From contig JAFATB010000005.1 in NCBI GenBank assembly GCA_019244185.1, positions 64,001 through 128,000 on the forward strand: 64,000 nt of DNA, in the 5' to 3' direction. Position numbers and translations under genes: made by a program. Every line of letters begins with the position of its first letter. Position 1 is the stretch's first letter. The stretch is from Acidobacteriota bacterium. GTDB lineage: Bacteria; Acidobacteriota; Thermoanaerobaculia; Gp7-AA8. The notes under the pieces were generated by a model that did not search any database, had not been told where the DNA came from, and saw nothing but the letters and a program-made list of their open reading frames with translations. Below, in pieces: positions 4,800 to 61,515 of this stretch.

Positions 4800-4876
4800 A
4801 AACCTCGCTTTCACTGCATGAGTTCGGCCAGCTGGGGGTGATTGTACGTGGGACGGCCGAGGTAGACTCGGGTGCG

Positions 4877-5591: not shown

Positions 5592-5632
5592 CGACTTCTT
5601 TGCGGATGTCCGCGCGCTAGAATGCGCGCGCC

Positions 5633-8118: not shown

Positions 8119-8121
8119 GAT

Positions 8122-9118: not shown

Positions 9119-9143
9119 GAACGCGTACGTTACCATCGCGCGC

Positions 9144-10618: not shown

Positions 10619-11088
10619 CGCTTCTTCCGCTCTTCGTCGGCGATCTTCTTCGCGTGCCGCGACTGGCCGAGGGAGACGTTGATCGGGTGGCTGCGATCGA
10701 GGAACGGCACCGCGGGCTTCGCGCGCACGCCGACGAGCTGCCGCACCGTCAAGAGATAGTCCTGATCGGGTGCGATCTTCAGTCCCTGCTCGAGCGTCTC
10801 CAGCGCCTTCTTGCGATTGCCCGCGGCGAGATAGATGCGCGCGAGGTTCGCGTAGTGATCGCCGTTGTAGAACTCGAGCTCGATCGCGCGGCGGCACAGA
10901 TCGATGGCCGGCTTGAACTTCTTCTGTACGAGTGCGAGGCAGAGCGCGAAGTACGACAGGCCGGCCGCCGCCTTCGCGGTGTTCATCGGCGGCGCTTCTT
11001 CGGTGCCGTAGATGTCGAGGAACATGGTCAGCGCGTGGAGGAAGTCCTCGTCGCGCGTCGTGCGAATCGCCTCTTCCACCGTCGCCAT
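10615..11088 (-). CDS. Tetratricopeptide repeat protein
   Basis: TPR-like helices (AIDLCRRAIELE...HYANLARIYL); translationally coupled in the operon. Confidence 0.8.
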   Translation of the reverse strand: MATVEEAIRTTRDEDFLHALTMFLDIYGTEEAPPMNTAKAAAGLSYFALCLALVQKKFKPAIDLCRRAIELEFYNGDHYANLARIYLAAGNRKKALETLEQGLKIAPDQDYLLTVRQLVGVRAKPAVPFLDRSHPINVSLGQSRHAKKIADEERKKR

Positions 11089-40994: not shown

Positions 40995-41540
40995 TCAGCG
41001 GTCGTTCCGCGCGAGCCATTCGTCGCGCAGGATGCCGTAGAAGACGAGGTCGACGTACTCGCCCCACTTCAGCAGGTGCTGGCGCAGCGTTCCCTCGTAC
41101 GTCATGCCGATCTTCTGCATCACGCGCCCCGACGCCGGATTGCGCTTGTAGTGCGCGGCGAACACGCGATGCAGCCCGCGCTCCTCGAAGCCGTAGCGCA
41201 ACACCGCCAGCGCGGCTTCGCTCGCGTACCCCCGGCCCCACTGCGGCACGCCGATCCAGTAGCCGATCTCGCCGATGCCGTCGCCCTTCAGCACGAGTCC
41301 CATCGCGCCGACGAGCGCGCCGTCGTCGATCGCAAAATGCACGACGCGGTTCTCGTCGAAGTCCGCCTGATGTTTCGCGATCCACTCCGCCGCCGCGCCC
41401 TCGGGATACGGATGCGGGATCATCAGCGTGTTGCGCGCGATCTCGTACTGCGAGCACGACTGCTGGACCGCGGGCGCGTCGCCCGGCGTGAACGGACGCA
41501 GCGTGAGACGTTCGGTGCGAAGCGTGGGCGCCTGCATCAT
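40995..41540 (-). CDS. GNAT acetyltransferase (RimJ/RimL family)
   Basis: LRTERLTLRPF, EIGYWIG...WGRGYASEA and NPASGRVMQKIGM motifs. Confidence 0.93.
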   Translation of the reverse strand: MMQAPTLRTERLTLRPFTPGDAPAVQQSCSQYEIARNTLMIPHPYPEGAAAEWIAKHQADFDENRVVHFAIDDGALVGAMGLVLKGDGIGEIGYWIGVPQWGRGYASEAALAVLRYGFEERGLHRVFAAHYKRNPASGRVMQKIGMTYEGTLRQHLLKWGEYVDLVFYGILRDEWLARNDR

Positions 41541-43162: not shown

Positions 43163-43770
43163 CCCACCCGCCCCTCCCCCGCCCGCGCTTTCATGCGGCG
43201 GATCTCTTCCTGCTCCTGTTGCTGGACGCTGCGCAGGAGCGCGGAGAGGTCGGGTTGGCCGGGCTTCGGCGACGATTTCGTGCCGGGCTGCTGCGGTTGC
43301 GGCTGCGGGTTGTTCTTCCCGTGGCCGCCTTGCTGGCCGCCGCGCGTCGATTGCTGGTCGGCTTGTTTGCGCGCGAGCGCGAGCTCGAGGTTGCGTTTTG
43401 CGCCGGCGTGATGCGGGTTCGCGCGGAGCGCCTCGATGTAGTCGGCGATGGCGTGGTCGAGCGCTTTGGCGGCGAAGGCGCTGTTGCCGCGGTTGAAGAA
43501 TGCATCGGCGCGAAGCTGCGGATCGCGCAGCGCGGGCTGCAGCGTCGTCGAGCCTTGCTCGCGTTGTCCGGCGGCGATCTGCGCGGTGCCGAGGTTGAAG
43601 GCGGATTGCGCGGACGGCGCCAGTGCGTTCGCGCGCGTGAACGACTGCACGGACTGCGCGTACTGCTGCTTCGCGTACGCCTGCGCGCCGCGCGCGCTCG
43701 CGGCGTGCGAGTTCGTGTCACGCAGGAACGCGCCGAGGCTGATCGCGGCGAGGATCACGAGCGGCTTCAT
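43156..43770 (-). CDS. BatC-like TPR protein
   Basis: AFNLGTA, FFNRGNS, AKRNLELA, Q-rich linker, terminal W. Confidence 0.85.
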   Translation of the reverse strand: MKPLVILAAISLGAFLRDTNSHAASARGAQAYAKQQYAQSVQSFTRANALAPSAQSAFNLGTAQIAAGQREQGSTTLQPALRDPQLRADAFFNRGNSAFAAKALDHAIADYIEALRANPHHAGAKRNLELALARKQADQQSTRGGQQGGHGKNNPQPQPQQPGTKSSPKPGQPDLSALLRSVQQQEQEEIRRMKARAGEGRVGW

Positions 43771-44720
43771 TCGGCACCTCGATGCGCGAGCGAGCCGAGG
43801 AAGAAGGCGACGAAGGCGAAGCCGAGCGCCCACTGGTAGCGATCGACCGGCACGCGCGCAACGGTCTCGCGCGCCTTCGCCACGCGCGCGCTGCCGAGGA
43901 GCGGATCGAGCGCGTGCGCCGCGAACGGGTTCTCCAGCATCGTGCCGCCGGTGCCGTTTGCGATGTCGCGCAGGACGTCGCCGCGCGCGTAGGTCGTTAC
44001 GACGTCGCCCGTCGCATCGCGCAGCGGCCCGTGTCCGGTCGGAATCGTGGCGCCGTTCGCGGAGCCGAGGAGGATCGTCGACACGGGCACGCCACGCGTC
44101 TTCGCGCGCTGCACGGCTTCGGCGACGCGCGCTCCTTGTTCCTCGCCGTCGCTGATCAGCACGAGATCGGCTTTTTGCGAGGGATCGCTGTCGATGAGGC
44201 GGAGCGAGCCGAGGATCGCGCTGCCGAGGTCCGAGCCGGGCTCGCCGACCTCGCCGGCCTGCAGCGTGTCGACGAGCGCGAGCACCGCGTCACCGTCGCT
44301 CGTGAGGGGCGAAACGACTTCCGGCTCTGACTCGAAGACGACGAGCCCGATCCGTCCTTCCTGCGCGTCGATGAGCCGCTTCGCGATCGCTTTGGCCGCG
44401 TCGAGGCGCGAGGCACCGACGTCTTCGGCGGCCATGCTGTTCGAGACGTCGATGAGGATGACGCGATTCGCTTCGCGCGCGACGACCGGCATCAGCGTGT
44501 AACCGGCGTACGGCCCCGCAAGCGCGACGACGGACGCGGCGAGCGCGACGCCGAGGAGCCACGGACGCAGCGCGCGCGCGGGCATGGTCACGCCGCGCAG
44601 ACGCTCGCTCGCGAAGCGCCGCGCGAGGCGAATGCGCGTGCGCTCGCGCGTCACGAGGAACAGCAGCGCGAACGGCACGAGCGCGAGGAGCCAGAGCAGC
44701 AGCACGTCGCGGAAGCTCAT
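43767..44720 (-). CDS. BatB-like VWA domain protein
   Basis: DVSNSM MIDAS motif, SRLDAAK and LISDGE. Confidence 0.9.
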   Translation of the reverse strand: MSFRDVLLLWLLALVPFALLFLVTRERTRIRLARRFASERLRGVTMPARALRPWLLGVALAASVVALAGPYAGYTLMPVVAREANRVILIDVSNSMAAEDVGASRLDAAKAIAKRLIDAQEGRIGLVVFESEPEVVSPLTSDGDAVLALVDTLQAGEVGEPGSDLGSAILGSLRLIDSDPSQKADLVLISDGEEQGARVAEAVQRAKTRGVPVSTILLGSANGATIPTGHGPLRDATGDVVTTYARGDVLRDIANGTGGTMLENPFAAHALDPLLGSARVAKARETVARVPVDRYQWALGFAFVAFFLGSLAHRGAE

Positions 44721-45724
44721 GCCGGCACCTTCAGCCAGAGCGTCTCGCCGCCGAGGAGCGACAGCGCGAGCAGCGCGAGCGCGGCACCGAGCGGCCAGAC
44801 GTACAGCTCGTCGATCTGCTCGCGCTTCGGCGCGGTGAGGCGCGTCTTCTCGAGCGCGTCGATGCGCTTGAGCACCGCGCCGAGCGCCTGCGCGTCCGTC
44901 GCGCGGAAGAACGCGCCGCCGGTCGTCGACGCGATCGCTTCCAGCGTCTTCTCATCGAGCTCGCCGCGGATGTGCGTGTAGATCGTCTCGATCGCGCCGG
45001 TGAACGGATTCTGCCGCTTCACCGGCAGCGGCACCGGACCTTCCGAGCCGACGCCGATCGTGTAGACCTTGATGCCCGCGGCGGCCGCGAGTTGCGCGGC
45101 GACGAGCGGATCGATCGAGCCGGAGTTGTTGACGCCGTCCGTCACGAGGATGACCACGCGGCTGCGCGTCTTCGAGTTGCGCAGGCGGTTGACGGCCGTG
45201 GCGAGCGCGTGGCCGATCGCGGTGCCGTTGCCGTGCTCGCCGATCTCCGCCTTCGCGAGCACGGCTTCGATGATGCGGCGGTCGTACGTGATCGGCACGC
45301 GCGTCGCCGCGCGGCTGCCGAACGTCACGATGCCGATGCGATCATCGGTGCGGCGGCGGATGAAGTCGCCGATCAGCTCTTTCGCGACGGCGAAGCGGTT
45401 GCGCGGACGAAAGTCTTCCGCGGCCATGGAGCCCGAGGCGTCGAGCGCGACGACGATGTCGATGCCGTAGCGGTCGCTCGCCGCGAGGCGCACCACGCGC
45501 TGCGGACGCGCCAGCGCGACGACGAGCAGCAGCATCGCCAGCGTCTCCAGTGCGAACGGCAGCGCCGCCGTCATGACACGCAGTCCCGGCGCCGGCGCGA
45601 CGAGCGCGAGCGACGAGTAACCGAACGCGCCGACGCGCTGCCGCCGGTCGCGGACCACAAGCGCGACGCGCGCGGCCACCGCAAGCGCGAGCGCGAACCA
45701 CAGCGGATCAGCGAAACGCGTCAT
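44717..45724 (-). CDS. BatA-like VWA domain protein
   Basis: LARPQ, DASGSMAAEDF, GTAIG, VTDGVNNSG and IKVYTIGVG motifs. Confidence 0.92.
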   Translation of the reverse strand: MTRFADPLWFALALAVAARVALVVRDRRQRVGAFGYSSLALVAPAPGLRVMTAALPFALETLAMLLLVVALARPQRVVRLAASDRYGIDIVVALDASGSMAAEDFRPRNRFAVAKELIGDFIRRRTDDRIGIVTFGSRAATRVPITYDRRIIEAVLAKAEIGEHGNGTAIGHALATAVNRLRNSKTRSRVVILVTDGVNNSGSIDPLVAAQLAAAAGIKVYTIGVGSEGPVPLPVKRQNPFTGAIETIYTHIRGELDEKTLEAIASTTGGAFFRATDAQALGAVLKRIDALEKTRLTAPKREQIDELYVWPLGAALALLALSLLGGETLWLKVPA

Positions 45725-46467
45725 GCCGCCCGCTCCGTCGCAGCGATCGGCGGCGGCTCCGGCGGCGGAATGAGCGCCAGCGCGTCCGCAGCCACCGCAT
45801 CGAAATCGCGCTCCTCGGCGCCCGACGTCGAGAACTTTTCGAGATCGCCCTGCCGCAGGATCATGGCGACGGCGTCGCGCTCGTCGCCGAGTCGCGGCAG
45901 CAGCTCGCTCGTGGTCAGCTCGCGGCCGAGTCCCGCACGCGTTGCCGCGAGAAACACGCGCGTCTCGTCGGCGAGGCGCGACCAGCGCAACGGCTCGAAC
46001 GGATGCGCGCGCAGCGCGTCGATCGCGCGGCGGAAACGCTCGTCCGGCGGCAGCGCGGGAACCGTTGCAGCCATCGTCTGCTTCGCGCGACGCCACACGA
46101 GCAGCCAGACGCCGAGCGCGCAAAGCGCCGCGATCGCGATCGCGACGAACGGCAGGCGCGGATACGCCGTCGCGCGCGGCGGCGCGAGCGGCGCGGGCTT
46201 GCGGTCGTCGTTCGGCTTCAGCACCGAATGCATCGGCACGACGAGGTTGCGAAAGTGCACGCCGCGCACGACGCCGCTGAGCGCGAACGGTTTCGGATCG
46301 AACGTGCGCACCACGACGTCCGCGCCGCGCTGCGACACGATCTCGTACGCGGGCGAGGCGTCCAGCGTCACCGGGCCGTCGAAGTGGATCGCGATCGGAT
46401 CGCCGACCGTCGGCGCGGCCGGTTGAAACGTCGCGGTGATCGCCAGTGCGAGAACGGGAAGGATCAT
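45721..46467 (-). CDS. Membrane protein of the MoxR/Bat operon (DUF4381-like)
   Basis: Signal peptide, TM, ELTTSE and DLEKF; translationally coupled on both sides. Confidence 0.75.
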   Translation of the reverse strand: MILPVLALAITATFQPAAPTVGDPIAIHFDGPVTLDASPAYEIVSQRGADVVVRTFDPKPFALSGVVRGVHFRNLVVPMHSVLKPNDDRKPAPLAPPRATAYPRLPFVAIAIAALCALGVWLLVWRRAKQTMAATVPALPPDERFRRAIDALRAHPFEPLRWSRLADETRVFLAATRAGLGRELTTSELLPRLGDERDAVAMILRQGDLEKFSTSGAEERDFDAVAADALALIPPPEPPPIAATERAA

Positions 46468-47369
46468 GCCGGTCGGTGCTGGCGCGCGCTCCGCTCGCGG
46501 AAGAAGCGCAGCAACGCGCGGTCGTAGGGAACAGCCGTGGACACGGCGAGGTGATCGATGGCCGACGCGCGCAGCCGACGCTCGAGCTGCGTGCGCCGCA
46601 GCGCGCCGCTTTGCGCGACGCCGGAACGCCGCAGATCGACGAGGCGCGCGCCGCCGCTCTCGAGATCGACGAGCCGCGCCAGCCCGCGGTCGGGAAAGCG
46701 CTCCTCGCGCGGATCGACGATCGGCACGGCGATGACGTCGTGCTTGCGGTTGAGGCGCTTGAGCGGCCGCTCGAACGCGATTTCGAGAAAGTCCGACAGC
46801 ACGAGCACGACCGCGCGCTTCACCGCGACGCGTTCGAGAAACCCCGCGGCGAGCTCGAGGTCCGCGCGCCCGTGCGGCCCGCGCATGGCCGCGTCCACCG
46901 CCGCGCGCACGAGGACTTGCGCGTGCGCTCGTCCGCGCCGCGGCGGGATGTACGCGCGGATCGCATCCGAGAACAGCAGCAGCCCGACGCGATCGGAGTT
47001 CTCGACCGCGGAGAACGCGAACACGGCCGCGAGCTCCGCCGCGAGATCGCACTTGCGCCAGTCCACCGAGCCGAACGCCATCGAGCCGGAGACATCAACC
47101 GCGATGAGGATCGTGAGGTCGCGCTCTTCGATGAACTCCTTGACGTGCGGCACGCCGCTGCGCGCGGTGACGTTCCAGTCGATCGTGCGGATGTCGTCGC
47201 CGGGCAGATACTCGCGCACCTGCGAGAACTCGATGCCGCGGCCGTGAAACGCGGAGTGGTAGTCGCCCGCGAAGCCCGCGCGGATCATGCGCGCCGAGAC
47301 GAGCTCGAGGTCGCGCACGCGCCGCACGACCGGCGCGCGCAGGTCGGGAGTCCGGCGCCGGAACCTCAC
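46464..47369 (-). CDS. DUF58 domain protein
   Basis: GRGIEFSQVREYLPGDDIRTIDWNVTAR, DVSGSM and LSDF motifs. Confidence 0.95.
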   Translation of the reverse strand: MRFRRRTPDLRAPVVRRVRDLELVSARMIRAGFAGDYHSAFHGRGIEFSQVREYLPGDDIRTIDWNVTARSGVPHVKEFIEERDLTILIAVDVSGSMAFGSVDWRKCDLAAELAAVFAFSAVENSDRVGLLLFSDAIRAYIPPRRGRAHAQVLVRAAVDAAMRGPHGRADLELAAGFLERVAVKRAVVLVLSDFLEIAFERPLKRLNRKHDVIAVPIVDPREERFPDRGLARLVDLESGGARLVDLRRSGVAQSGALRRTQLERRLRASAIDHLAVSTAVPYDRALLRFFRERSARQHRPA

Positions 47370-48340
47370 GGCACCGCGACCGCTCCCAGGATCTGGTCGA
47401 GGATGCGATCGGCCGGCATCTGCTCCGCCGCCGCCTCGTAGCTGAGCACGAGCCGGTGCCGCAGCACGTCGTGAGCGACGGCCTTGACGTCTTCCGGCAC
47501 GACGTACGTGCGCCCGCCGAGGAACGCGTGCGCTTTCGCAACGTGCGCGAGCGCGAGCGTGGCGCGCGGAGACGCGCCGAACGAGATCAGGTTTGCCAGC
47601 GACGGCAACCGAAAGTCTGCCGGCCGGCGCGTGGCGTTCACGAGCTGCACGATGTACCGGCCGATGCGTTCGTCGGTGTGCACGCTCGCCGCGAGTTTCG
47701 CGACGCGATGAATCTCGTCGATGCCGAAGACGCGCTGCACGCCGACGCTCTCGCGCGTCGGATCGAGATACAACCCGAGCATCCGCAGCTCTTCCTCCGC
47801 GCTCGGATACTCCACCTTCAGCTTCATCACGAACCGATCGACCTGCGCCTCGGGTAACGCATACGTTCCCTCGTGCTCGATCGGGTTCTGCGTGGCGATC
47901 ACGACGAACGGATCCGGCAGCGCGTACGACTGATCGCCGATCGTCACCTGCCGCTCCTGCATCGCCTCGAGCAGCGCGCTCTGCACTTTCGCCGGCGCGC
48001 GGTTGATCTCGTCGGCGAGGATGAGGTTCGCGAAGACGGGGCCAAGGCGCGCGTTGAACGTGCGGCCGGCGGGATCGAAGATCTGCGTGCCGGTGATGTC
48101 GGCGGGCAGCAGATCGGGCGTGAACTGGATGCGCTTGAACGTGGCGTCGAGCGCCGACGCGAGCGTCTTCACGAGCAGCGTCTTGGCGAGGCCGGGCAGG
48201 CCTTCGACGAGCACGTGGCCGCGGATCAGAATGGCGATGAGCAGACGGTTGACGATCGCGTCCTGCCCGATGACGACGCGCCCGACCTCGGCGCGCAGCC
48301 GCGCAAGCGTCTCATGAGCCTGTTCGGTGGCTTCCTGCAT
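47366..48340 (-). CDS. moxR: MoxR family AAA+ ATPase
   Basis: GLPGLAKT, RIQFTPDLLPAD, DEINRAPAKVQSALLEAMQE and ATQNPIE motifs. Confidence 0.96.
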   Translation of the reverse strand: MQEATEQAHETLARLRAEVGRVVIGQDAIVNRLLIAILIRGHVLVEGLPGLAKTLLVKTLASALDATFKRIQFTPDLLPADITGTQIFDPAGRTFNARLGPVFANLILADEINRAPAKVQSALLEAMQERQVTIGDQSYALPDPFVVIATQNPIEHEGTYALPEAQVDRFVMKLKVEYPSAEEELRMLGLYLDPTRESVGVQRVFGIDEIHRVAKLAASVHTDERIGRYIVQLVNATRRPADFRLPSLANLISFGASPRATLALAHVAKAHAFLGGRTYVVPEDVKAVAHDVLRHRLVLSYEAAAEQMPADRILDQILGAVAVP

Positions 48341-52541: not shown

Positions 52542-53498
52542 ATGGCGACCCGCTACGAGACACCCGCACGACGACGGAACGAACTGGAGCCCCCGACTCC
52601 CACGCGCGTTCTCGCCGTTGACGATGACTCCGCTTACCTCCGCCGCCTCGAGGTCGTCCTGACTCGCGCCGGCTTCGACGTCGTGACCGCCTTCGACGGT
52701 CCGACCGCGATCGAGCGCATCCGCGAAGACGGCGACATCGAGATCCTCATCAGCGATCTCACCATGCCCGGCATGGACGGCATCGAGACCGTGCGCCAGG
52801 CACGCACCGCGTGCGCGTTCCCCGGCCTCTACACGATCCTCCTCACCGCGAACGACGGCGCCGACGTGAAGCTCCGCGCGCTCGACAGCGGCCTCGATGA
52901 CTTTCTCACCAAAGCGTCGACCGACTCCGAGATCGTGGCCAAGCTCCGCAGCGCCGCACGACGCCTGGCCATGGAACGCCGCCTCCAGGTCGAAAACGAA
53001 GAACTGCAGACGCTCGCCCTGACCGACGAGCTCACCGGCATCGCCAACCGCCGCGCACTCTTCCGCGCCGCCGAAAGCATCCTAGGCGCCGGCCGCACGA
53101 TGACCGTCGTCCTCTTCGACCTCGACCGCTTCAAGCAGATCAACGACAGCTACGGCCACCTCATGGGCGACCGCATCCTCGCCGACGTCGCCGCCTGCCT
53201 CAAAGCCCACACGCGCGTCGGCGACGTGATCGCCCGCTATGGAGGCGACGAGTTCGTCCTCCTCCTCCCCGACACCCCCACCCCCGAAGCCCGCGCGATC
53301 ACGCAACGGATCCGCGCCAGAATCGCCGCCCTCCGCTGGACCCATTCCGGCAGCGTCATCTCCATCAACCTCGGCACCGGCCTCTCCACGGCCGGCTCCG
53401 CCAGCACCATCGAAACGCTGCTGGCGGAGTCGGACGCAAAGCTGTACGAGGGGAAGGTGGGGAGGCATCAGGAGCTGGATCTTTCGATCCAGCTCTGA
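52542..53498 (+). CDS. Response-regulator diguanylate cyclase (REC-GGDEF)
   Basis: VLAVDDD...ISDLTMP receiver; DELTGIANRR, DLDRFKQIND and RYGGDEF motifs. Confidence 0.95.
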   Translation: MATRYETPARRRNELEPPTPTRVLAVDDDSAYLRRLEVVLTRAGFDVVTAFDGPTAIERIREDGDIEILISDLTMPGMDGIETVRQARTACAFPGLYTILLTANDGADVKLRALDSGLDDFLTKASTDSEIVAKLRSAARRLAMERRLQVENEELQTLALTDELTGIANRRALFRAAESILGAGRTMTVVLFDLDRFKQINDSYGHLMGDRILADVAACLKAHTRVGDVIARYGGDEFVLLLPDTPTPEARAITQRIRARIAALRWTHSGSVISINLGTGLSTAGSASTIETLLAESDAKLYEGKVGRHQELDLSIQL

Positions 53499-53513
53499 TG
53501 CCTTTGGTTCTTA

Positions 53514-54023
53514 CTACAGTTCCACGCCGGTGACCGCCGGTTCGCGGCCTAGCAGCGCAAGGAATACCGCGCCGGACACGTGCTGTCCCATCGCGTTACC
53601 CGTACCGGCAACGATGTAAAGGTCATCGCGGTCCGGATACTTCAGCCAGACCGCCTGAAGCAACTGTTCCGGGACATCGAGGATACGAATGAGCACCTCG
53701 GGCCGGGAGTCTGCTCCATCCACGATCTCCTCGATTTGCAGCGCCATGAAACCAGCTGCGATCTCGACGACCTGCTCGGTGCGCGAGCGTGCAAACGCGG
53801 ACGCGCGCTCGCCGACTCGCACTTGATGATGCCAGCCAGTATGCTCGGCGATCTCTTCGATCCGCGTCGCCTCCGGCGGAACCTCTCCTTTGTACGTCCA
53901 CACGGCAATGGATTGCTCGAGTGCGACCCTGCTCTCGCGCAACACGCCGAACAATGACGTAAAGCGTGCGGCGATGTCGTCGCGCAATGCTTCCGGTACT
54001 TCGTAAGTGTCAGTCAGTGCCAT
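53514..54023 (-). CDS. Hypothetical protein, partner of the papain-like protease
   Basis: GAAGGA SD; 169 aa; GWHHQV...RILDVPEQLLQAVWL; last gene of the ECF-CHAT module. Confidence 0.7.
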   Translation of the reverse strand: MALTDTYEVPEALRDDIAARFTSLFGVLRESRVALEQSIAVWTYKGEVPPEATRIEEIAEHTGWHHQVRVGERASAFARSRTEQVVEIAAGFMALQIEEIVDGADSRPEVLIRILDVPEQLLQAVWLKYPDRDDLYIVAGTGNAMGQHVSGAVFLALLGREPAVTGVEL

Positions 54024-54038
54024 GATGAGTCCTTCCCT

Positions 54039-54587
54039 TCAGTCGACGATCCACGTCTGGACCCACGTGCCGTAATAGCCGGTCGGCAGGTGCGGCCGCG
54101 GTACGGCTCCAGTGGAGTTGTTCTTTGCGCAGTCGAGAATCATTACCTGGTCCGGAGCCGAGACGCCGACGACCAGCGCCATGTGACCGGTCACCCTCCG
54201 GCCGCTCGCGCGGCGGAAGCCGAGGATCAGGAGCTTATTCTCGTCAACGACGTTTGTTTGTATTTCCGCGAAGGACAGCTGCGGCTGCGGAGCGGGCGAG
54301 ACCGTGAGACCTTCGGTGGGGCACACCAGGGTTTCGAAGTCCCGAGAGTCACAGGAAACATTGCACCGGAAGGGTCGGGTGCAACAATCAAGGGACGCAT
54401 CCTGCAGAAACGTCTGCACGATCTCGCACTGGCTTCTCGTGCTTCCACGACTCTTCAGAACCATCTGCACAGTCGCTGCCCAGCACCATTCGTTTTGCTC
54501 TGCGCCGCACCACGTCACGGGAGCGGCATGCAGCCTCGGCGTCGCTGCGAGCGGTTGGGTTAACAGAATCTCATTGTTACGAAACAT
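54039..54587 (-). CDS. Papain-like cysteine protease (C39-like/AvrRpt2-like)
   Basis: EQNEWCWAA (Gln, Cys), GHMALVVGV (His), VMILD (Asp); Cys-rich QCEIV...DCC...C insert; AGGAG SD. Confidence 0.8.
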   Translation of the reverse strand: MFRNNEILLTQPLAATPRLHAAPVTWCGAEQNEWCWAATVQMVLKSRGSTRSQCEIVQTFLQDASLDCCTRPFRCNVSCDSRDFETLVCPTEGLTVSPAPQPQLSFAEIQTNVVDENKLLILGFRRASGRRVTGHMALVVGVSAPDQVMILDCAKNNSTGAVPRPHLPTGYYGTWVQTWIVD

Positions 54588-54599
54588 GCTGAATTCTCC

Positions 54600-55550
54600 T
54601 TATGGCAGCCACAGCGCCGGCGGACAATTGTGTCCACCCGCGGTGCCGTATCGAATGACGGGCGCGGTTCGCACGCCGGCGTCGTACTGTTGCGCGATCA
54701 ATGCGAAAGTCATCTCAGCGGGCGGGTTCTCAATCAGATCGACCTGATTGAGCCGGTGTGAATGCGTCTCCTGCGGTGGATGCGGCAGCCCCACAGGGTC
54801 GGTATGGCCATAGAGATAACGCAGCGGCGCCGGCGGGGGCGTGTGGCACATTGTGTAATACAGTGGAAAATGCCGATCGACCTCGCAGTCCGACATTCCA
54901 TCGAGCTCGTCGTCGAGGATGATTTCCTCCGAGGGCACGTTGCCGATGCGCACCTCGATTGTATTCAGACCTCCGACCGAGCCGATCTTCAGCACGTCGG
55001 TACCGGCGGCGTCTGTCATGCGCAGTGTGATGAATTCTTTGTCTGTCTGAAAGTTTAGGCAAACGTCCTGCGCGATGAACTGATCGAAGGGGCCTTCTTC
55101 AGCGAAGCCCCATTTGAATTTGGGCGCGACCCATGTCGCGGATAGATGGCCCCCAGTGAGCTTCAACCGGCCCGAGACGATTCGAGGGTTGGTCGACGCG
55201 AAGACAGTCTGTGAGAAACGGGCGTGCACGGGGTTGGGGACCGCGGCCGTCATCGGCAGGATGTAGAGTGTGTTCATCGAGAAGCCCGTCTGTGGCATCT
55301 CGTCGATCGACAAGGCCTTGCCGTCGAGATAGAACGCGCTGAGTGTAGCTGGTACTTTTTTTAGCCGTCGATGATTGTCGATTTCGTCCGGCACGCGGGT
55401 CGAGCCGGGCTGCAGCGCCGCCGACTCGGCGAGCACATAAGCCTGATGCGGCTCGGGTGCGTCGCTGAAATTTTTGAGTATTACGGTCGCGCCCGTGTCA
55501 TCAGGTACGAGTGCCGTGATACCTGTGAAAATGATGTGTACATCCTTCAT
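54600..55550 (-). CDS. Hypothetical 316-aa protein downstream of the CHAT protease
   Basis: AAAGGA SD; beta-rich; IIFTGI, HFPLYY and C-terminal GGHNCPP; no recognised family. Confidence 0.75.
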   Translation of the reverse strand: MKDVHIIFTGITALVPDDTGATVILKNFSDAPEPHQAYVLAESAALQPGSTRVPDEIDNHRRLKKVPATLSAFYLDGKALSIDEMPQTGFSMNTLYILPMTAAVPNPVHARFSQTVFASTNPRIVSGRLKLTGGHLSATWVAPKFKWGFAEEGPFDQFIAQDVCLNFQTDKEFITLRMTDAAGTDVLKIGSVGGLNTIEVRIGNVPSEEIILDDELDGMSDCEVDRHFPLYYTMCHTPPPAPLRYLYGHTDPVGLPHPPQETHSHRLNQVDLIENPPAEMTFALIAQQYDAGVRTAPVIRYGTAGGHNCPPALWLP

Positions 55551-55683
55551 AATCGTTCCTTTGTGTGGTGGTGTGGCAGGGACAGCGTGAGCACACGCTC
55601 AGCGCGTCGGTGTAGTACCAGTCATAGATTGTTCGCGAATCGACCCGGACCTGCGCAGCAGCGTTGCCGCTTCCTTGCTGCAC

Positions 55684-55711
55684 AATGGAGGGACGCGGCG
55701 CTCGTTTTCCC
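55684..55711 (-). promoter_or_regulatory. Candidate ECF-sigma promoter for the three downstream genes
   Basis: GGGAAAACGAGCGCCGCGTCCCTCCATT, resembling the motif at 59151-59179. Confidence 0.45.
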
Positions 55712-55728
55712 GATGAAAGTTCGGGAGG

Positions 55729-58700
55729 TCAGGCGGAGATCGTTTGCGCCGGCAAACGCCGCTCGATCGGCCCAAGGACGCGAAGTGCGCCCCAATATTG
55801 AGGCCTTCGGCGGAGCGGACTTGGGGAATGGAGATATTGCAGTTGTGTGCCGCGCAATGCGTCGGCGGCGGTCATTCCGCCGCGGATGCGGCGATGAAAT
55901 GAACTGAAGAAAGTCGCAGCAAACGTATCGTCGATGTCGTACAGAGGAGCGACGACGGCTCCGGCTCCGGCGGCGAGGAAGGCTCGCGCGAGACTGAGAG
56001 AGCCTTCAGCCCTCCGCGTTTTTCCGGTGGCGGTCCTGCAGTTCGCGAGCACGACGAGCGGCTGCCGTCTCAGCGTCCACGAACCGACCGTCTCCGGCGA
56101 CAAGGTCGTCTCCTGCGCGCCGAGCGCAAAACCAGGACCGTCATCGGCACTCGTCGCCGGCTTCGAGTGACCAATGAGGTGAATGACGTCCGCGTCCGTA
56201 GCCGCGGCGCGAATGACGTCCTGCGTCGCCTGCCGGTCGTAGAAACTGGTCGACCGCGGATAGGCCCCGATCACACCACGAGCTTCGGCGTCGGCGCTCG
56301 CCAGCGGCGTGAGCTGGCGATCGCCGCCGGCAGCACGCTCGGCAACCACAAGGACAGTATCTCGTGCTGACGAGGCAGCCGCACCGGAGAGTGCTACCGC
56401 CGCACTCGGTGCGACGATCGCCGCGTGCTGCTCGATCAGGTATTCGCCACGACTTCGGTCGTATAACGCCGAAAACGGCACCTCGTCGTCGAAGGCAGCA
56501 TCCGGAACCAGGACGAGCATCTCGTTTGGACCCACGCGTGCGCGCAAGGCCAACGGCAAGAGCAAGTCGTGGAGGTCGGCAACCGCGCCTTCACACGGCA
56601 AGGAGAGCTGGGCCATGCATGTGGCGACTCGATGCACCGCCGCCGCAACCGTCTCCGTCGGCGCTGCGATCCGCACGCCAATCACATCGTTCGAAGTCAC
56701 ACACCACACGAGCAGCGCGTCCGGCAAGACGGCCCACTCGAGGAGCGCCGTGTTCGCCGGCACCTGCGCGGCGATTGCGCGTGCGTCGTTCTGCGGCGCG
56801 ACATTGCGACGCTCCGCGAGCAGCCGTGCCCGTGAGTGTTCGGCGACGATCAGCGCCTCTCCCCACTCCCCATCGCGCGACAATTCTCCTAGCAGCCGCT
56901 GACTCGCCTCCGCCGCGACGTCGAGATACGAGATCCGCTCCACGGGATTCAGGAGCTCGCGTCGTTGCTGCTCCACGTACCGCAGCGCCGTTCGGAAATC
57001 GGCACGCGCTGCATGCGAATCGCGCAGTTGCTGGTGCGCGATGCCGCGCGCGAGAAACACGTCGGCGACACGAAACGTGTCGGAACGCCGCGCCGTGCGG
57101 CCGAGGTAGCGATTTGCAGCCGTCATGGCGATTGCAGGTTCGGTGGCGGCAATCGTCCGAGCCAAAACCGCGTCGTAGTTCTCGACCGCGCGCTCGCGCG
57201 TCGACGGGTCGGCGATTGCAGTCGCCGCGTAGGACGCGCGTCGAAATGCTGCCTCTGCACGACCGCGCGCGCCAGAACGATGCATAGCGACCGCGTACCA
57301 GAGATCGGCGTCCGCGATCGCAGTCGGATCGCCGCTGACGTTCGCGATCGTCTTGAGCCTGCTCGCCACTGCGACCGCAAGCCGTGGATGCTGGTCATCG
57401 CGCAGCAGAGACTGGAGCATCTCCTGCAGGGAAACATGCAGCCGGTCGTGATCGCCCGCTCGGTACAACCCGGCGATTCCCTCGATGCGCGCCCCCCAAC
57501 CGTCGTCGGCCGCTCGGAGGTACGATGCTCGCTCGGCGATCATTGCCTGGAGAGCGGCAATCGTGTCGGTTTCGCCGGCCTTTGTGAGTTGCGCCAGCGC
57601 CGAGGCGTAGGGACGGCCGGCGGCGCCGGCGCGGTCTGACGCAACGTACGCCAAGCCTTCGATCCATGACAGCCTCGCGTCAAGGGTCGGGTACCGTTTC
57701 GCGTCGTAGGCTGGCGAACCGCGGACGCGCGCGATCTCGCGCAATGCAACGTCGTAGCGTGCGCAATACCACTGCGCACGGGCAGTCGCGAGACGCGAAA
57801 GCCACTCCAGCCGCGTATATGCCCGCAGATGCTCGCTGGCGGCTTCAAGAAGCGTCGCCGCCCGTTGCACATCGGTTTTCTGAAGTTGCTGCCCCTGCCG
57901 CAGTTCCTGTAAGCCGGACGCCGCGCCCGCGGAACCGTTGCGCCGCAGATCCGCCAATGCCGCGGCGAGAAAAGCATCGCCGCGGCGTTCGAACGTGGCG
58001 GCAGCGGTTCGCAGGGCAAAGTCGTCAGAATCCGCTCCATCGACGATCCGCGCCTCTGCGGCGTCGCGCATTTGTCGTGGATGCTCGGCCACGAGGCGCG
58101 CAATCGCCGCCGCGTCGGATCGCGCGATCGCGCGCGCGAGAAGAGCGCCCCCGTCCCACGAGCTGCTGCTGGTCGGCTCATTGAGATCGGATAGCTTCTG
58201 TCGCGCCTCGGTCGCCCAAGGCGACTGCGGATCGAGGCGGAGGTAATCGGCCCAGGCAACCTTTGCGTCCTCCTGAAGACCGACCGCGGTCAGGGCGAGT
58301 GCACGATTCCAGGCGATGGGGGGCGAATGCTCGAGGTTCCATGCTCGCTGGACGCACTCCGCTGCGGCGAGATCATCCGTGCGCGCGCGCGTGTAGAGGG
58401 CGCGCGCCGAATAGGCGGCGGAGAGATCGTTGAGCAACGTAGCGTCTTGCGAGGCGGTGATTGCCGCACTTATCGATGACTGATGCGTCTCACGCGTCAA
58501 CGCTTTTTCGAGCGTCGTGACTGCCGCTCGCGGGTCGCCGAGCAGCAACTCGGCAACGCCGACGGCGTGTAGGTTCTTCGGCGTCGCGTGCGCGTCGGCG
58601 GCATGGCGGATGTCCGCTGCCGCAGCCATGAGCGCCCAGCGATGCTCGTCGCCTTTGTCGCTGCCGTCCTGGCCGCCTTCGCCACCGCGCATGTGGTTGT

Positions 58701-59076
58701 ACTCTTTGTACGAGAAACCTCCGCTCAATCGTCCCTCGATCGGGCGACTCTCGAGATCGTCCGCAGCTGCAATCAGCTTGGCGATATCCGCCGAGCCGGA
58801 ACGGCCGGGCAGGAAACGATAGACGTACAAAGCCGCAATCGCCGCGAGCAGCGCCGCAGTTGCAGCCATCCACCAACGCGAGCGGAAAGGCCGGATTCGA
58901 GTGGGCTGAGCCGCGGTGGAGAGCTCGGTCGCCGTCATGAAGACAGAGCGGCACTCGCCGCAAACACTGACGTGTTCGATTGCCGCGCGGCGGGCGCTCG
59001 CGTCCAATGTGCCATCCGCTAAGCCGGCGAGGGTCTCCGGGTCGAGATGATTGGACGGTTCGGTGAGAGTGCTCAT
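55729..59076 (-). CDS. Zinc-finger anti-sigma / TM / TPR / CHAT (caspase-like) protease
   Basis: N-terminal HxxxCxxC (HVSVCGEC), hydrophobic helix, TPR-like helices; C-terminal CHAT with LVLVPD, IHLIGHS, LVVLANC, LARAFLAAGA, ALRGTQ and YWGA. Confidence 0.9.
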   Translation of the reverse strand: MSTLTEPSNHLDPETLAGLADGTLDASARRAAIEHVSVCGECRSVFMTATELSTAAQPTRIRPFRSRWWMAATAALLAAIAALYVYRFLPGRSGSADIAKLIAAADDLESRPIEGRLSGGFSYKEYNHMRGGEGGQDGSDKGDEHRWALMAAAADIRHAADAHATPKNLHAVGVAELLLGDPRAAVTTLEKALTRETHQSSISAAITASQDATLLNDLSAAYSARALYTRARTDDLAAAECVQRAWNLEHSPPIAWNRALALTAVGLQEDAKVAWADYLRLDPQSPWATEARQKLSDLNEPTSSSSWDGGALLARAIARSDAAAIARLVAEHPRQMRDAAEARIVDGADSDDFALRTAAATFERRGDAFLAAALADLRRNGSAGAASGLQELRQGQQLQKTDVQRAATLLEAASEHLRAYTRLEWLSRLATARAQWYCARYDVALREIARVRGSPAYDAKRYPTLDARLSWIEGLAYVASDRAGAAGRPYASALAQLTKAGETDTIAALQAMIAERASYLRAADDGWGARIEGIAGLYRAGDHDRLHVSLQEMLQSLLRDDQHPRLAVAVASRLKTIANVSGDPTAIADADLWYAVAMHRSGARGRAEAAFRRASYAATAIADPSTRERAVENYDAVLARTIAATEPAIAMTAANRYLGRTARRSDTFRVADVFLARGIAHQQLRDSHAARADFRTALRYVEQQRRELLNPVERISYLDVAAEASQRLLGELSRDGEWGEALIVAEHSRARLLAERRNVAPQNDARAIAAQVPANTALLEWAVLPDALLVWCVTSNDVIGVRIAAPTETVAAAVHRVATCMAQLSLPCEGAVADLHDLLLPLALRARVGPNEMLVLVPDAAFDDEVPFSALYDRSRGEYLIEQHAAIVAPSAAVALSGAAASSARDTVLVVAERAAGGDRQLTPLASADAEARGVIGAYPRSTSFYDRQATQDVIRAAATDADVIHLIGHSKPATSADDGPGFALGAQETTLSPETVGSWTLRRQPLVVLANCRTATGKTRRAEGSLSLARAFLAAGAGAVVAPLYDIDDTFAATFFSSFHRRIRGGMTAADALRGTQLQYLHSPSPLRRRPQYWGALRVLGPIERRLPAQTISA

Positions 59077-59975
59077 GGAATTGCGCCCTCCCCTTTTGTG
59101 ACCTTCGCCCCTCCGGAAGTCCCACTCGTTGTGGGAGGCCCACCTACGGGATTGGTGGGACGGAAGGCATGGATTTCCCCACCATGGGAAAAGAAATCGA
59201 AGTGGATGTCCGTGTCGCCGCGATCGAGAAGCGTGGCGACATCGCTCCTTGCGACGCCAGCCCGCTCGAGCGTGCGTCGCATCGTCCCGTAAAGCCGGTC
59301 CAGTCGCTTATAGAGGCGCTTCTGTTCGATGTGCAGCCTTTGCGCGATGTCGGGCACTTTCAGGGCGTGCCAGAAGCGCATCTGCAGGATGAGGCGGTCC
59401 TCGGCGTCGAGAGTGCCGAGGAGCTCGTCGATGGCGCGGGCGGCGGTGCGGGCGGCGCGTTCGCGCTCATGGATCTCGACGCGTTCGTCGGCGCCGGCGT
59501 CGACGGCGGGCGCGTCGGCGCTCACCTCTTCCGAGACGATCGTCGGGCGGGGGGTGCGGGGCGGGAGGCGGACGTAGATCGCCTCGAGCTCGCAGGCGGT
59601 GTATTGCGAGCCGGCCGGGGTGGTCAATACCTTGACCGCCTCGTCGAACGTGTAGCCGTCGCGGGTGACGAGGCGTTCCAGCGTAATGGCCTTGTCGCCG
59701 AGGCGTTTGGCTTCGGCGGAGGGGCGCCATTTCCCCCAGCGTTCGACGCGCCATTGATGCGCGAGGCGGGCGATCACGGTCGTGAGGTAGGTCGAAAACG
59801 AGCTGCGGCCCTCGAACTTGCGGATGACGGCGTAGTCGTCGTCGAGGAGGCGGACGCGGACCTCCTGCATGAACTCGAGGGTCTCGTCGCGGTTGAGATG
59901 GTCCCGGCGCGCGACGAAGGCGGCGATGCGCTCGATCGTGCCAAGGTGCTCGAGGTACGTCTCTTCCGCGTTCAT
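59073..59975 (-). CDS. ECF-type sigma-70 factor with a central insertion
   Basis: FEGRSSFSTYLTTVI (region 2); LDAEDRLILQMRF...VPDIAQRL (region 4); ATGA overlap with the CHAT gene. Confidence 0.9.
   Translation of the reverse strand: MNAEETYLEHLGTIERIAAFVARRDHLNRDETLEFMQEVRVRLLDDDYAVIRKFEGRSSFSTYLTTVIARLAHQWRVERWGKWRPSAEAKRLGDKAITLERLVTRDGYTFDEAVKVLTTPAGSQYTACELEAIYVRLPPRTPRPTIVSEEVSADAPAVDAGADERVEIHERERAARTAARAIDELLGTLDAEDRLILQMRFWHALKVPDIAQRLHIEQKRLYKRLDRLYGTMRRTLERAGVARSDVATLLDRGDTDIHFDFFSHGGEIHAFRPTNPVGGPPTTSGTSGGAKVTKGEGAIP
59151..59179 (-). promoter_or_regulatory. Candidate ECF-sigma promoter inside the sigma 3' end, upstream of the CHAT gene
   Basis: GGGAAATCCATGCCTTCCGTCCCACCAAT, resembling 55684-55711. 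Confidence 0.45.
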
Positions 59976-60120
59976 CGGACCCAGTGACGCTTAGGCGTCT
60001 TACGCAGCCGCGGCGAGCCGCGGGACCTATAGATTTCGGGAACGCCGTCAGTCTAACAGGATCGGTGAGGAACGGAAGGTCGGACGCGGCGGACGGAACG
60101 TCCACCGTGTCCGAAAGTTT

Positions 60121-60411
60121 TTAGCCGCGGCCTTTGCGGGTGCTTGCGACGTCGTCAGTGCCGTCGAGCCGCTCGACCTGCTGCTTGCCGCCGAGGCCGT
60201 CGTGCGCGGCCTCGCGCGTCTGGCGCTCGTCGAGTTTCGCGCCGGTGCGCTGCGACTCCCACTGTTCGGTGGTCAGTCCGCGCGGGCGTTCCGCGGCGTC
60301 GCCCTGGTACAGGTTGCCTTTCACGATATGGATGACACGGTCACCTTTGACGCGCGTCTTGCGGTCCGGCGAGCCGGCTTTCGGATCGGGACCGCGTTGG
60401 TCGTCTCTCAT
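60121..60411 (-). CDS. Small hydrophilic hypothetical protein
   Basis: GGAGG SD before the ATG at 60411; 96 aa, highly charged. Confidence 0.6.
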   Translation of the reverse strand: MRDDQRGPDPKAGSPDRKTRVKGDRVIHIVKGNLYQGDAAERPRGLTTEQWESQRTGAKLDERQTREAAHDGLGGKQQVERLDGTDDVASTRKGRG

Positions 60412-60468
60412 GGTTGCCTCCGCCTTCGGAAGAGCAAAGGACATGCACGGTGGACGCGAAAAAGAAAC

Positions 60469-60499
60469 TTGACATCATCCCGATTAGACTTATTCTAAA
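60469..60499 (+). promoter_or_regulatory. Sigma-70 promoter overlapped by a Fur-family (Irr/PerR-like) operator
   Basis: TTGACA-N16-TATTCT-N7-GTG; near-palindrome TTAGACT-T-ATTCTAA covers the -10. Confidence 0.75.
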
Positions 60500-60503
60500 T
60501 TTC

Positions 60504-60926
60504 GTGAACGTCAAACATGAGCCCGGCGAGCAGTTGCGCGAGCATGGCATCCAGCCTTCCGCGCAGCGCGTGGCGGTGGCGGATTACGTCCTGCGCACGC
60601 TGGAGCATCCGTCCGCCGACCTCGTCTGGAAGCGGGTCAAAGAGAAGTTCCCGTGGATCTCCCGCGCGACGGTCTACAACACGCTGAACCTCTTCGTCGA
60701 CAAGGGCCTGCTGCAGCGCCTGACCATCGCCGAGGACTGCGTGATCTTCGACCCGATCACGGAGACGCACCATCACTTCATCGACGAGTCCACCGGCGCG
60801 ATCCACGACGTGCCGTGGGAGCGCGTGCAGGTCTGCAACATCGAGTCGCTGCGCGAGTACGACGTCCACGACTACCAGGTGGTGATGCGCGGCAAGCTCC
60901 GCCGCACGCCGAAACGCACCAAGTGA
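60504..60926 (+). CDS. Fur-family transcriptional repressor (PerR/Irr-like)
   Basis: LREHGIQPSAQRVAV, HPSAD, ISRATVYNTLNLF and THHHFID motifs. Confidence 0.92.
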   Translation: MNVKHEPGEQLREHGIQPSAQRVAVADYVLRTLEHPSADLVWKRVKEKFPWISRATVYNTLNLFVDKGLLQRLTIAEDCVIFDPITETHHHFIDESTGAIHDVPWERVQVCNIESLREYDVHDYQVVMRGKLRRTPKRTK

Positions 60927-60978
60927 ATCACCCGCCCGGCCCCGCGCCGGGCACAGTACGCAAAAGGAGAAGATCAAG

Positions 60979-61515
60979 ATGTTGACTGTTGGAGACAAGT
61001 TTCCCGAGTTCAAGGTGACGGCGAACGTCGGCCGCGAAAAAGGCAAAGAGTTCAAGGACGTCACGAACAAGGACTTCGCCGGCAAGTGGCTGGTCTTTTA
61101 CGCCTATCCGAAGGATTTCACCTTCATCTGCCCGACGGAGATCGTCGAGTTCGGCCGCCACACGAATGATTTCGCCGACCGCGACGCCGTCGTTCTCGGC
61201 GGCTCGACCGACAACGAGTTCTCGCACCTCGCGTGGCGCAACGCGCATCCGGACCTCGCCGACATGCCCACTCCGCTCGTGCACATCAACCCGAAGCTCG
61301 CCAACGAGCTCGGCATCGTGCACAAGGAAGGCGGCGTCGCGCTGCGCGTGACGTTCGTCGTCGATCCGGACGGCATCATCCGCTCGGTCAGCGCGTACGA
61401 CCTCTCGGTCGGCCGCAACGTCGGCGAAGTGCTCCGCACCCTCGACGCCCTTCAGACCGACGAGCTTTGCCCCTGCAACTGGCAGAAGGGCGAAGACACG
61501 ATCAAGGTGGCGTAG
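60979..61515 (+). CDS. ahpC: Peroxiredoxin (alkyl hydroperoxide reductase C)
   Basis: YPKDFTFICPTE and LQTDELCPCNW motifs. Confidence 0.95.
   Translation: MLTVGDKFPEFKVTANVGREKGKEFKDVTNKDFAGKWLVFYAYPKDFTFICPTEIVEFGRHTNDFADRDAVVLGGSTDNEFSHLAWRNAHPDLADMPTPLVHINPKLANELGIVHKEGGVALRVTFVVDPDGIIRSVSAYDLSVGRNVGEVLRTLDALQTDELCPCNWQKGEDTIKVA

Follow-up and report, generated by a model that had tools for sequence, protein, structure and literature searches.

A predicted DdvS/DdvA-type sigma factor locus in Acidobacteriota with a conserved partner gene and an exchangeable protease slot

Described CHAT-linked sigma factor systems and the architecture of the locus

The DdvS/DdvA system of Myxococcus xanthus consists of a sigma factor of the extracytoplasmic function (ECF) type and a single-pass anti-sigma factor, in which a zinc-bound cytoplasmic head is joined to a periplasmic TPR-CHAT part of approximately 900 residues (PMC6061681, PMC11506125). 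This work describes a related locus in a stretch of 64,000 nucleotides (nt), hereafter the window, from an Acidobacteriota bacterium of the Thermoanaerobaculia (Gp7-AA8; assembly GCA_019244185.1, contig JAFATB010000005.1). Five open reading frames (ORFs), all on the minus strand and in the same orientation, occupy positions 53514-59975. They encode an ECF-type sigma factor, a predicted DdvA-type anti-sigma factor, a protein of an unnamed family that is called d1 here, a predicted papain-fold cysteine peptidase and a small partner of this peptidase. We regard the overall architecture and its homology to DdvA as highly probable.

According to the text of PMC11506125, the DdvA-DdvS structure is available as entry 8ROT of the PDB (DdvS/DdvA entries: 8ROT, 8RW5 and 8RLZ), and the ddvS-ddvA operon goes on to encode an uncharacterised protein and a presumed peptidase of family C25. 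The pair controls a cyclic oligonucleotide-based antiphage signaling system (CBASS) and a CRISPR-Cas system and can protect against a phage, yet only a subset of the DdvA-like pairs of Myxococcota is described as located near defence systems. The working hypothesis of the same source is that the outer domain senses a signal, after which CHAT self-cleavage is followed by intramembrane proteolysis; the trigger is given there as unknown. The CHAT domain of DdvA has no three-helix motif, and the protein forms a dimer with its active sites facing the linker of the partner subunit.

CHAT proteases are associated with sigma factors in other described settings as well. In the type III-E craspase (PMC10028731), a TPR-CHAT protease is likewise tied to proteolytic sigma release (Csx29 cleaves Csx30, with a sigma factor of the RpoE type). 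The craspase protease works in the cytoplasm as an RNA-guided monomer and acts on a distinct anti-sigma-like protein, whereas protease, sensor and anti-sigma factor are combined in one predicted membrane protein in the window, with no CRISPR nearby. The type III-B SAVED-CHAT/PCaspase system of Haliangium ochraceum (bioRxiv 10.1101/2023.06.23.546230) resembles the window in the pairing of a CHAT protease with a second protease, and a sigma factor and an inhibitor also take part in it, but its sensor is a cytoplasmic SAVED domain that binds cyclic tri-adenylate (cA3), and the abstract of the preprint describes no d1-like component. ECF54 sigma factors have carboxypeptidase, subtilase and CHAT genes nearby (PMC8999054) and are possibly controlled by proteolysis (PMC8999054, PMC7826278). 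They are described as actinobacterial and without anti-sigma factor (PMC7826278), whereas the CHAT protein of the window itself carries an anti-sigma head.

The first gene of the operon (59073..59975, minus strand) encodes a sigma factor of 300 amino acids (aa) that matches TIGR02937 (59.2 bits, cut-off 42.9; E 3.8e-16) and Sigma70_r4_2 (26.1 bits, cut-off 25.7), with a weaker match to region 2 (16.5 bits, cut-off 24). It comprises the sigma-2 and sigma-4 regions only, connected by an unusually long, conserved linker, and is thus classified as an ECF (sigma-70 group 4) protein. Its stop codon overlaps the start codon of the anti-sigma gene (55729..59076, minus strand) in the sequence ATGA, with GGGAGG upstream, and the order and coupling of the two genes are those of ddvS and ddvA.

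The anti-sigma factor of 1115 aa displays the domain order of DdvA: a zinc-binding anti-sigma (ZAS) head at approximately aa 1-60, one membrane helix, a scaffold, a TPR region with weak matches, and a C-terminal CHAT domain. The zinc motif HVSVCGEC lies at aa 35-42 (H35, C39 and C42), with H10 as a possible fourth ligand, and zinc binding is predicted on this basis; the zf-HC2 profile gives E 0.006, below the Pfam cut-off. In the aligned family the ZAS motif is present in 11 of the 21 members, of which five have Cys and six His as first ligand. The window protein has His at this position, whereas the text on DdvA describes a CHCC set. The single hydrophobic segment (aa 68-87; 58816..58875, minus strand) has the highest 19-residue hydropathy of the protein (1.75) and is preceded by four Lys/Arg in 15 residues and followed by two. 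Together with the position of the ZAS head, this bias suggests an N-in, C-out topology. The CHAT domain (aa 834-1101; 55774..56577, minus strand) is full-length (Pfam profile positions 6-287 of 289, E 7e-43). Its presumed catalytic residues, H970 in IHLIGHS (56167-56169, minus strand) and C1013 in LVVLANC (56038-56040, minus strand), are invariant in 21/21 family members and align with the dyad region of DdvA, so that the domain is a predicted protease.

The homology to DdvA becomes visible at the profile level. As a single query against the PDB, the 1115-aa protein gave no match. The profile of the 21 family members aligns collinearly with DdvA chain 8rot_B (E 2e-46), positions 10-605 of the profile with residues 7-583 of the chain and positions 930-1077 with residues 834-979, whereas the next CHAT entries, those of craspase and separase, reach only about E 1e-4. 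Because of this collinear match, the protein is classified, at the level of sequence profiles, as a remote full-length homologue of DdvA, from which it differs by phylum and by the lack of single-sequence similarity.

Most of these features had already been read from the letters of the window in the original prediction, namely five co-oriented genes in an AT-richer stretch, a coupled sigma/anti-sigma pair, a polypeptide uniting an HxxxCxxC motif, one hydrophobic helix, TPRs and a CHAT domain with both catalytic residues, separate Shine-Dalgarno (SD) sites for the three downstream genes, a papain-type Cys-His-Asp triad and the absence of CRISPR nearby. These observations held up at the coordinates given here. 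The accompanying remark that no characterised system with this exact gene set was known to its author did not, since DdvS/DdvA is already characterised and has a structure.

The anti-sigma gene is separated from d1 by 178 nt, d1 from the 182-aa peptidase ORF by 12 nt, and the latter from the 169-aa partner ORF by 15 nt; SD-like purine runs are present ahead of each of the three downstream genes. In the 178-nt gap, neither a fold of significance (z -1.25 and +1.14) nor a site resembling a terminator is seen. A strong hairpin is found only after the last gene (53463..53503; -33 kcal/mol, z -8.2, with 0/200 shuffled sequences as strong), where it is likely a two-way terminator between the operon and a convergent response-regulator/GGDEF gene. 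As a terminator-like fold is absent from the gap and the hairpin stands at the end, the five genes may well be co-transcribed. The three downstream genes have a GC content of 59-61%, compared to approximately 67% for the genome. The GC content of third codon positions (GC3) is 0.88-0.93 over the initial two thirds of the sigma gene, drops to 0.65-0.79 through the anti-sigma and downstream genes and is back at 0.87-0.91 in the convergent GGDEF gene. This contrast was assessed within the locus and its flank, the genome-wide GC3 reference being contaminated by non-coding frames.

Upstream of the sigma gene, a promoter-like element, CCTGTTAGACTG (60049..60060, minus strand), was identified by conservation. 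The element CCTGYTAGACTG lies about 75 nt before the sigma start, is kept with at most two changes in 6/7 aligned related loci and occurs as a single exact match in the whole window. It reads as TGn followed by TAGACT, an extended -10-like box, and is a candidate promoter of the sigma operon. Just upstream of it, a basic ORF of 107 aa (60121-60444, minus strand) has a coding-like GC3 of 0.80 and no Pfam match.

The distribution of the family was studied in a phylum sample of 401 genomes, queried with the first 330 residues of the anti-sigma factor (E 1e-5 or better). Matches were obtained in 42 genomes, in 11 of which the match starts in the ZAS head and continues through the scaffold region. 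The best 20 of approximately 60 places found with this N-terminal search form the set of 20 loci referred to below. A sigma homologue is encoded beside the anti-sigma gene in 14 of these 20 loci (13 co-oriented, one divergent) and in 7/7 loci from named records. The closest sigma relatives in named records belong to Thermoanaerobaculia, Acidobacteriota and Holophagales and are metagenome-assembled; named anti-sigma homologues include Thermoanaerobaculia and Longimicrobium. The occurrence of a DdvA-type family in Acidobacteriota appears new: the BLAST search described in the text of PMC11506125 yielded Myxococcota and one Comamonas, and table S7 of that paper may list more. The window's own genome encodes ten CHAT ORFs, two with the zinc motif. 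The second of these belongs to another sigma/ZAS-transmembrane-CHAT pair (contig C4, 448500-452434), whose sigma paralogue is 37% identical; it has no co-directional downstream gene, and an acyl-CoA dehydrogenase gene on the other strand and a transporter gene of the major facilitator superfamily come next.

Several related loci differ from this arrangement. In loci L100 and L103 (Holophagales, Thermoanaerobaculaceae), a sigma homologue of 41-43% identity is divergent from a TPR-CHAT gene, which is followed by d1; the match to the TPR-CHAT protein begins past the ZAS region, i.e. sigma and CHAT are linked without an evident anti-sigma-head fusion. Over positions 3134-11827, locus L098, from a metagenome-assembled Acidobacteriota genome, shows a tandem duplication, with a sigma gene, a short anti-sigma-like ORF, a further sigma gene and another short ORF, after which come a TPR-CHAT gene without ZAS region, d1 and a gene for caspase C14. 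In two relatives the system seems to be decaying: the sigma match of L101 is split over three frames, and a TAA stop cuts the anti-sigma factor of L044 (G070:C21) after approximately 280 aa. On contig C4 of the window's genome, four of the ten CHAT genes lie within 55 kb (~690-745 kb, loci L002-L004) at a GC3 of approximately 0.65-0.77, with a caspase C14 gene and a d1 paralogue beside one of them, which gives the appearance of a CHAT/caspase island.

The partner protein d1 and the exchangeable protease slot

The third gene, d1 (54600..55550, minus strand), encodes 316 aa and is assigned by position and profile to a very divergent, unnamed family. It has no Pfam match, nor has any of the 19 positional d1 ORFs from related loci (0/19). 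A word-based homologue search with d1 returned the query only, a single-query search of the 401 phylum genomes gave marginal matches (E 0.002 or worse), and BLASTp with the three downstream window proteins detected none of them in any of the 20 loci. Position is more informative: a co-directional ORF of 250-343 aa follows the CHAT gene immediately in 18/20 loci, and one of the two exceptions (L081) was later found to have an ORF in the d1 position. These ORFs mostly show no pairwise similarity to one another, but have motifs in common: an N-terminal strand h-x-h-x-F-x-G, P-H-x-P-x-L, a G-G turn and H-F-x-x-Y-Y. Nearly all d1 proteins carry a Cys located 3-12 residues before the C-terminus and followed by Pro (C309 in the window), often within C-S-N-S/T-Q-W/Y-P or C-P-P/M-x-x. 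Together with this Cys, conserved His residues (H35 and the one in the H-F motif) could make up a metal site. A known sorting signal was considered for the C-terminal Cys motif and dropped, as no membrane segment follows.

A profile of 20 d1 ORFs, searched over 391 genomes, matched 15 genomes, all of which fall within the 42 positive for the anti-sigma N-terminal region. Ten matches lie outside the training set and nine of these adjoin a CHAT-family gene: eight start 30-148 nt past the end of that gene on the same strand, and one is the C-terminal domain of a protein that also has a caspase domain, its gene lying just upstream of a CHAT gene. No CHAT gene lies within 1.5 kb of the tenth. Of the ten CHAT genes in the window's own genome, five have a d1 neighbour. 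On contig C6 of this genome (98102-100597; L005:10102-12597, minus strand), the gene immediately upstream of a CHAT gene encodes an 831-aa protein in which a d1-like domain at the C-terminus is naturally fused to a caspase C14 domain.

The AlphaFold2 model of d1, based on a 34-sequence alignment, displays a β-rich core (predicted local distance difference test, pLDDT, >90 over most of aa 1-210, mean 77; predicted TM-score 0.77). Foldseek found no match in the PDB at E 1e-3 or better and BFVD gave none; with VIA, the wide search returned 1/48,161 chains at Z >=2 and the search of Foldseek's top 996 none, results which, by the tools' own caution, do not prove a new fold. In the ESM Atlas, the Atlas's own model of d1 was poor (pLDDT 0.25) and no usable neighbour was obtained. 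Most d1 proteins, including that of the window, begin at the first strand with no signal peptide seen, and a minority carries twin-arginine translocation (Tat) or Sec/lipoprotein signals.

The position behind d1 is frequently occupied by a protease gene. A peptidase gene adjoins d1 in 14/26 tabulated loci, a raw count without control for background frequency; peptidase genes make up a few per cent of genes. When the first peptidase gene is counted where two are present, the slot holds Peptidase_S8 in five loci, a trypsin-like protease in two, M48 in one (with one more behind an S8 gene), S9 in one, where a PrsW gene follows, and the papain-fold peptidase in the window. Caspase C14 genes follow d1 in three loci and are fused to it in the case described above, a likeness to the SAVED-CHAT/PCaspase system. 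The original prediction had proposed a second protease as companion, which is indeed a recurrent neighbour, and had raised the question of a fixed core with variable cargo. Such a core is borne out as well, with the qualification that the core consists of sigma factor, anti-sigma factor and d1 and that the fourth gene is the variable part. An unknown protein and a peptidase gene after the anti-sigma gene also correspond, by gene position, to the ddvS-ddvA operon as described in the text on that system, although the window peptidase is papain-fold and not C25.

How the slot varies is best seen in locus L097 (Thermoanaerobaculia, metagenome-assembled), which is syntenic with the window over sigma gene, anti-sigma gene, d1, fourth gene, convergent GGDEF gene and ABC permease gene, and has one Peptidase_S8 gene where the window has the papain-like gene and its partner. 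The sigma factors are 71% and the GGDEF proteins 77% identical, compared to 30% for the anti-sigma factors (ZAS 42%, scaffold 40%, TPR 25%, CHAT 31%) and 21% for d1, and the GC3 of the middle genes is low in both genomes. Because of this difference from the flanks and the low GC3 in both genomes, the segment from the 3' part of the sigma gene to the operon end is one of either much faster divergence or replacement.

In the window, the slot is filled by the gene of the papain-fold cysteine peptidase (C39_2/C70-like; 54039..54587, minus strand). The 182-aa protein itself matches Pfam profiles below their cut-offs (Phytochelatin 18.7 bits, E 1e-3; C70 14.4 bits, E 0.04). Its fold is assigned through the triad and ten aligned relatives, nine of which match Peptidase_C39_2 (best 3.2e-12) and six Peptidase_C70 (best 1.7e-13). 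C35, H135 and D152 are invariant in 10/10 relatives and Q29 is kept in at least 90%, which gives the catalytic residues of a papain-type enzyme; W-C-W-A-A and W175 are kept as well. No signal peptide is seen in the protein. A word-based homologue search with this protein found the query only, and in the ten other genomes of the same genus it was not found in eight and marginal in two (E 3e-4 and 4e-3). Weak relatives occur in 9/200 other genomes of the class.

The last gene (53514..54023, minus strand) encodes the 169-aa partner, a protein with a WHHQ motif. A search of 1.8 billion representatives yielded 40 distant relatives, for none of which Pfam gave a match. A partner profile detected the partner ORF directly downstream of the peptidase-like gene in five of the nine loci with weak relatives, and revealed two more pairs, in one of which both parts lie within a single open frame; the partner is thus adjacent to papain-like genes in seven other loci. 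Such a partner is missing next to the two relatives of the peptidase that carry signal peptides. The AlphaFold2 model of the partner (pLDDT 92.9) resembles the staphopain pro-region or a cystatin: its best fold match is prostaphopain B (Z 7.3, root-mean-square deviation 4.3, 129 aligned residues), followed by cystatin folds at Z 4-5, scores in a range that the tools call common. Foldseek on the PDB gave no match for the partner at E 1e-3 or better. In the ESM Atlas, C70/C39_2 proteins of 358 aa contain an unannotated part to which the partner aligned (TM-score 0.66), and its feature neighbours include a Staphopain_pro cluster (score 0.83), which is a lead only.

Papain-like enzymes are kept in check by small proteins in known cases: staphopains have a pro-region or a staphostatin, and cystatins act on papain-like enzymes. 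The window resembles these in that the gene of a papain-fold peptidase is followed by that of a small, β-rich protein with a prostaphopain B-like predicted fold; it differs in that no sequence match exists and that the peptidase is C39_2/C70-like and not C47. With moderate confidence, we read the pair as a papain-fold peptidase of the cytoplasm that is probably restrained by the second protein, its pro-region-like partner. The original prediction had named a lack of conservation of the downstream genes next to sigma-CHAT pairs as a ground for its refutation. This lack is observed for the papain-like gene and its partner, which adjoin not one of the 27 related sigma/CHAT loci examined (0/20 and 0/7). 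By the homologue searches, they are a separate two-gene module that is found elsewhere.

Proposed mechanism and competing explanations

We propose that the locus is a DdvS/DdvA-type switch that continues into d1 and a lineage-variable protease slot and works through regulated proteolysis, a reading that, taken as a whole, we consider fairly probable. The single-pass anti-sigma factor would keep the ECF sigma factor at the membrane through its zinc-binding head in the cytoplasm, and the large outer part of the anti-sigma factor, composed of scaffold, TPR region and caspase-like CHAT protease, would act as sensor. Upon an extracytoplasmic signal, the outer domain may be removed by CHAT itself or by a neighbouring protease, after which a site-2 protease would cut in the membrane and free the sigma factor. 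Such regulated proteolysis is feasible because the genome has a 440-aa Peptidase_M50 gene, a site-2 protease candidate. Without a terminator, the operon would run into d1 and then into the slot, here a cytoplasmic papain-fold peptidase and the pro-region-like partner that probably restrains it. The proteolytic steps are tentative, and we hold them to be somewhat doubtful in their present form; d1 is a putative component of the switch, and inhibition of the peptidase by the partner is suggested by the predicted fold. The (auto)cleavage by CHAT that frees the sigma factor, as put forward in the original prediction, coincides with the published DdvA model, but is a proposal there too, with an unknown trigger according to the text of PMC11506125.

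A number of observations weigh against this proposal. The sigma family profile retrieved generic sigma-4 matches from the PDB at E 0.01 or better and no DdvS chain, and a single-sequence PDB search with the sigma factor matched nothing, so the window sigma factor is not detectably DdvS-like. An ECF-type promoter was not found: the upstream element has the look of an extended -10 box of the housekeeping type, no second copy of it precedes d1, and autoregulation of the sigma factor from an ECF-type promoter was dropped for lack of such a motif. Mutants in the catalytic dyad of M. xanthus DdvA behave like the wild type, which leaves autoproteolysis unproven even there, as the text of PMC11506125 describes. 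Homology among the d1 subgroups is weak in profile-profile comparisons (probability 48% and 62%, E ~1e-4), and an iterative hidden Markov model built from the Tat-bearing subgroup did not reach the other subgroups against 9842 decoy ORFs. The second ZAS-CHAT pair of the genome, on contig C4, has no d1. Finally, direct contact of d1 or the papain-like protein with CHAT is doubtful, because neither shows a signal peptide and the CHAT domain should be outside the membrane.

These weaknesses leave room for explanations of the locus other than the proposed switch. An anti-phage system comparable to the M. xanthus DdvS regulon, in which the outer TPR-CHAT part senses a phage protein, the sigma factor is set free and the peptidase is an abortive-infection effector kept off by its partner until then, would agree with the control of CBASS and CRISPR-Cas by DdvS/DdvA and the protection described in the text of PMC11506125, and with the CHAT-to-caspase cascade with sigma factor and inhibitor of the type III-B system (bioRxiv 10.1101/2023.06.23.546230). 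The anti-sigma/d1/protease segment diverges far faster than its flanks, with lower GC3 in two genomes, which fits an arms race or repeated replacement, and C39-like toxin domains of CdiA show a weak resemblance to the profile of the peptidase. The genomic context, however, does not support it. Among 22 neighbouring proteins analysed with Pfam and PADLOC, no CRISPR, CBASS or other known defence set was found within approximately 15 kb on each side, the PADLOC matches being explained by a KsgA-type methylase and FtsK, and the five operon proteins have no meaningful PADLOC match themselves. Moreover, just a subset of the Myxococcota DdvA-like pairs is described near defence systems, and many proteases in the slot belong to common secreted types that carry signal peptides. 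A role in defence, like that of DdvS/DdvA, is possible, but this explanation in its full form is quite unlikely, and a role in sensing proteins or proteolysis in the envelope is at least as likely as one in defence. The latter view, in which TPR-CHAT keeps watch on proteins in the periplasm or outside the cell (damage, prey or nutrient protein), the sigma factor induces a protease suited to the lineage and d1 is a helper of that protease, draws on the S9, M48, trypsin and C14 slot proteases with signal peptides in several loci and on a housekeeping neighbourhood (ABC transporter, GGDEF regulator and a Fur-family gene with AhpC). TPR-CHAT/d1/protease triads also occur without ZAS head or sigma factor, and the caspase-d1 fusion ties d1 to a protease and not to a sigma factor. 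On the other hand, both candidate output proteins of the window are without signal peptides and a housekeeping stress sensor would not usually diverge as fast as this sensor does, so that a non-defence envelope sensor of this kind is possible but on the unlikely side.

Another explanation concerns the last two genes only, which could be passengers: a self-contained toxin/immunity- or zymogen-like cassette transferred into the slot and not controlled by the sigma factor. The recurrence of the pair away from sigma/CHAT loci, its absence from the 27 related loci, the failure to find the peptidase in most genomes of the genus and the AT-richness of both genes relative to the genome all fit this idea. 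Against it stand the 12- and 15-nt spacing, the SD-like sequences, the shared orientation and the lack of a terminator before the pair, as well as its location exactly in the slot that holds a protease in relatives, and we judge it unlikely. A broader idea is that TPR-CHAT, d1 and protease form an undescribed, fast-evolving three-part protease-sensing cassette of soil bacteria, in which d1, with a fold of a new kind and three conserved residues (His, His and a Cys at the C-terminal end), couples the caspase-like sensor to an exchangeable second protease, and transcription is wired in, in some lineages, by a zinc anti-sigma head fused onto the sensor. This idea is speculative and rather improbable as it stands.

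Neighbouring genes and meaning for the DdvA family

Beyond the genes named above, the surroundings comprise a small unknown ORF, a BON protein, a lipase and a MoxR/VWA/BatD operon and, further away, a zinc peptidase, a VWA protein and FtsK. The operon (41537-48340, minus strand) contains genes for a MoxR AAA ATPase, a DUF58 protein, two VWA proteins, a TPR protein and a BatD-like protein and is of the Bat type. On the other side, a Fur-family regulator gene followed by that of an AhpC/TSA peroxiredoxin (60414-61515, plus strand) adjoins the sigma operon in a PerR-like arrangement. A good sigma-70-like promoter match at 60469-60496 falls inside the ORF of the Fur-family regulator as called, and the gene may therefore start further downstream.

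The core of the locus, in summary, rediscovers the characterised DdvS/DdvA system; its occurrence in Acidobacteriota, the conserved d1 and the recurrent exchangeable protease appear new. The design of DdvA is hence not confined to myxobacteria. d1 is a conserved candidate co-factor that published work treats as a hypothetical protein only and, having neither a Pfam model nor a structural neighbour, is a reasonable target for structure determination. The second protease is a regular companion. Taken together, these points offer leads on the missing step in DdvA signalling, namely whether d1 or the protease starts or relays cleavage. The hypervariable segment between conserved flanks is a natural experiment on the exchange of sensors and outputs and, if the three-part cassette were true, DdvA would be one instance of a wider family.

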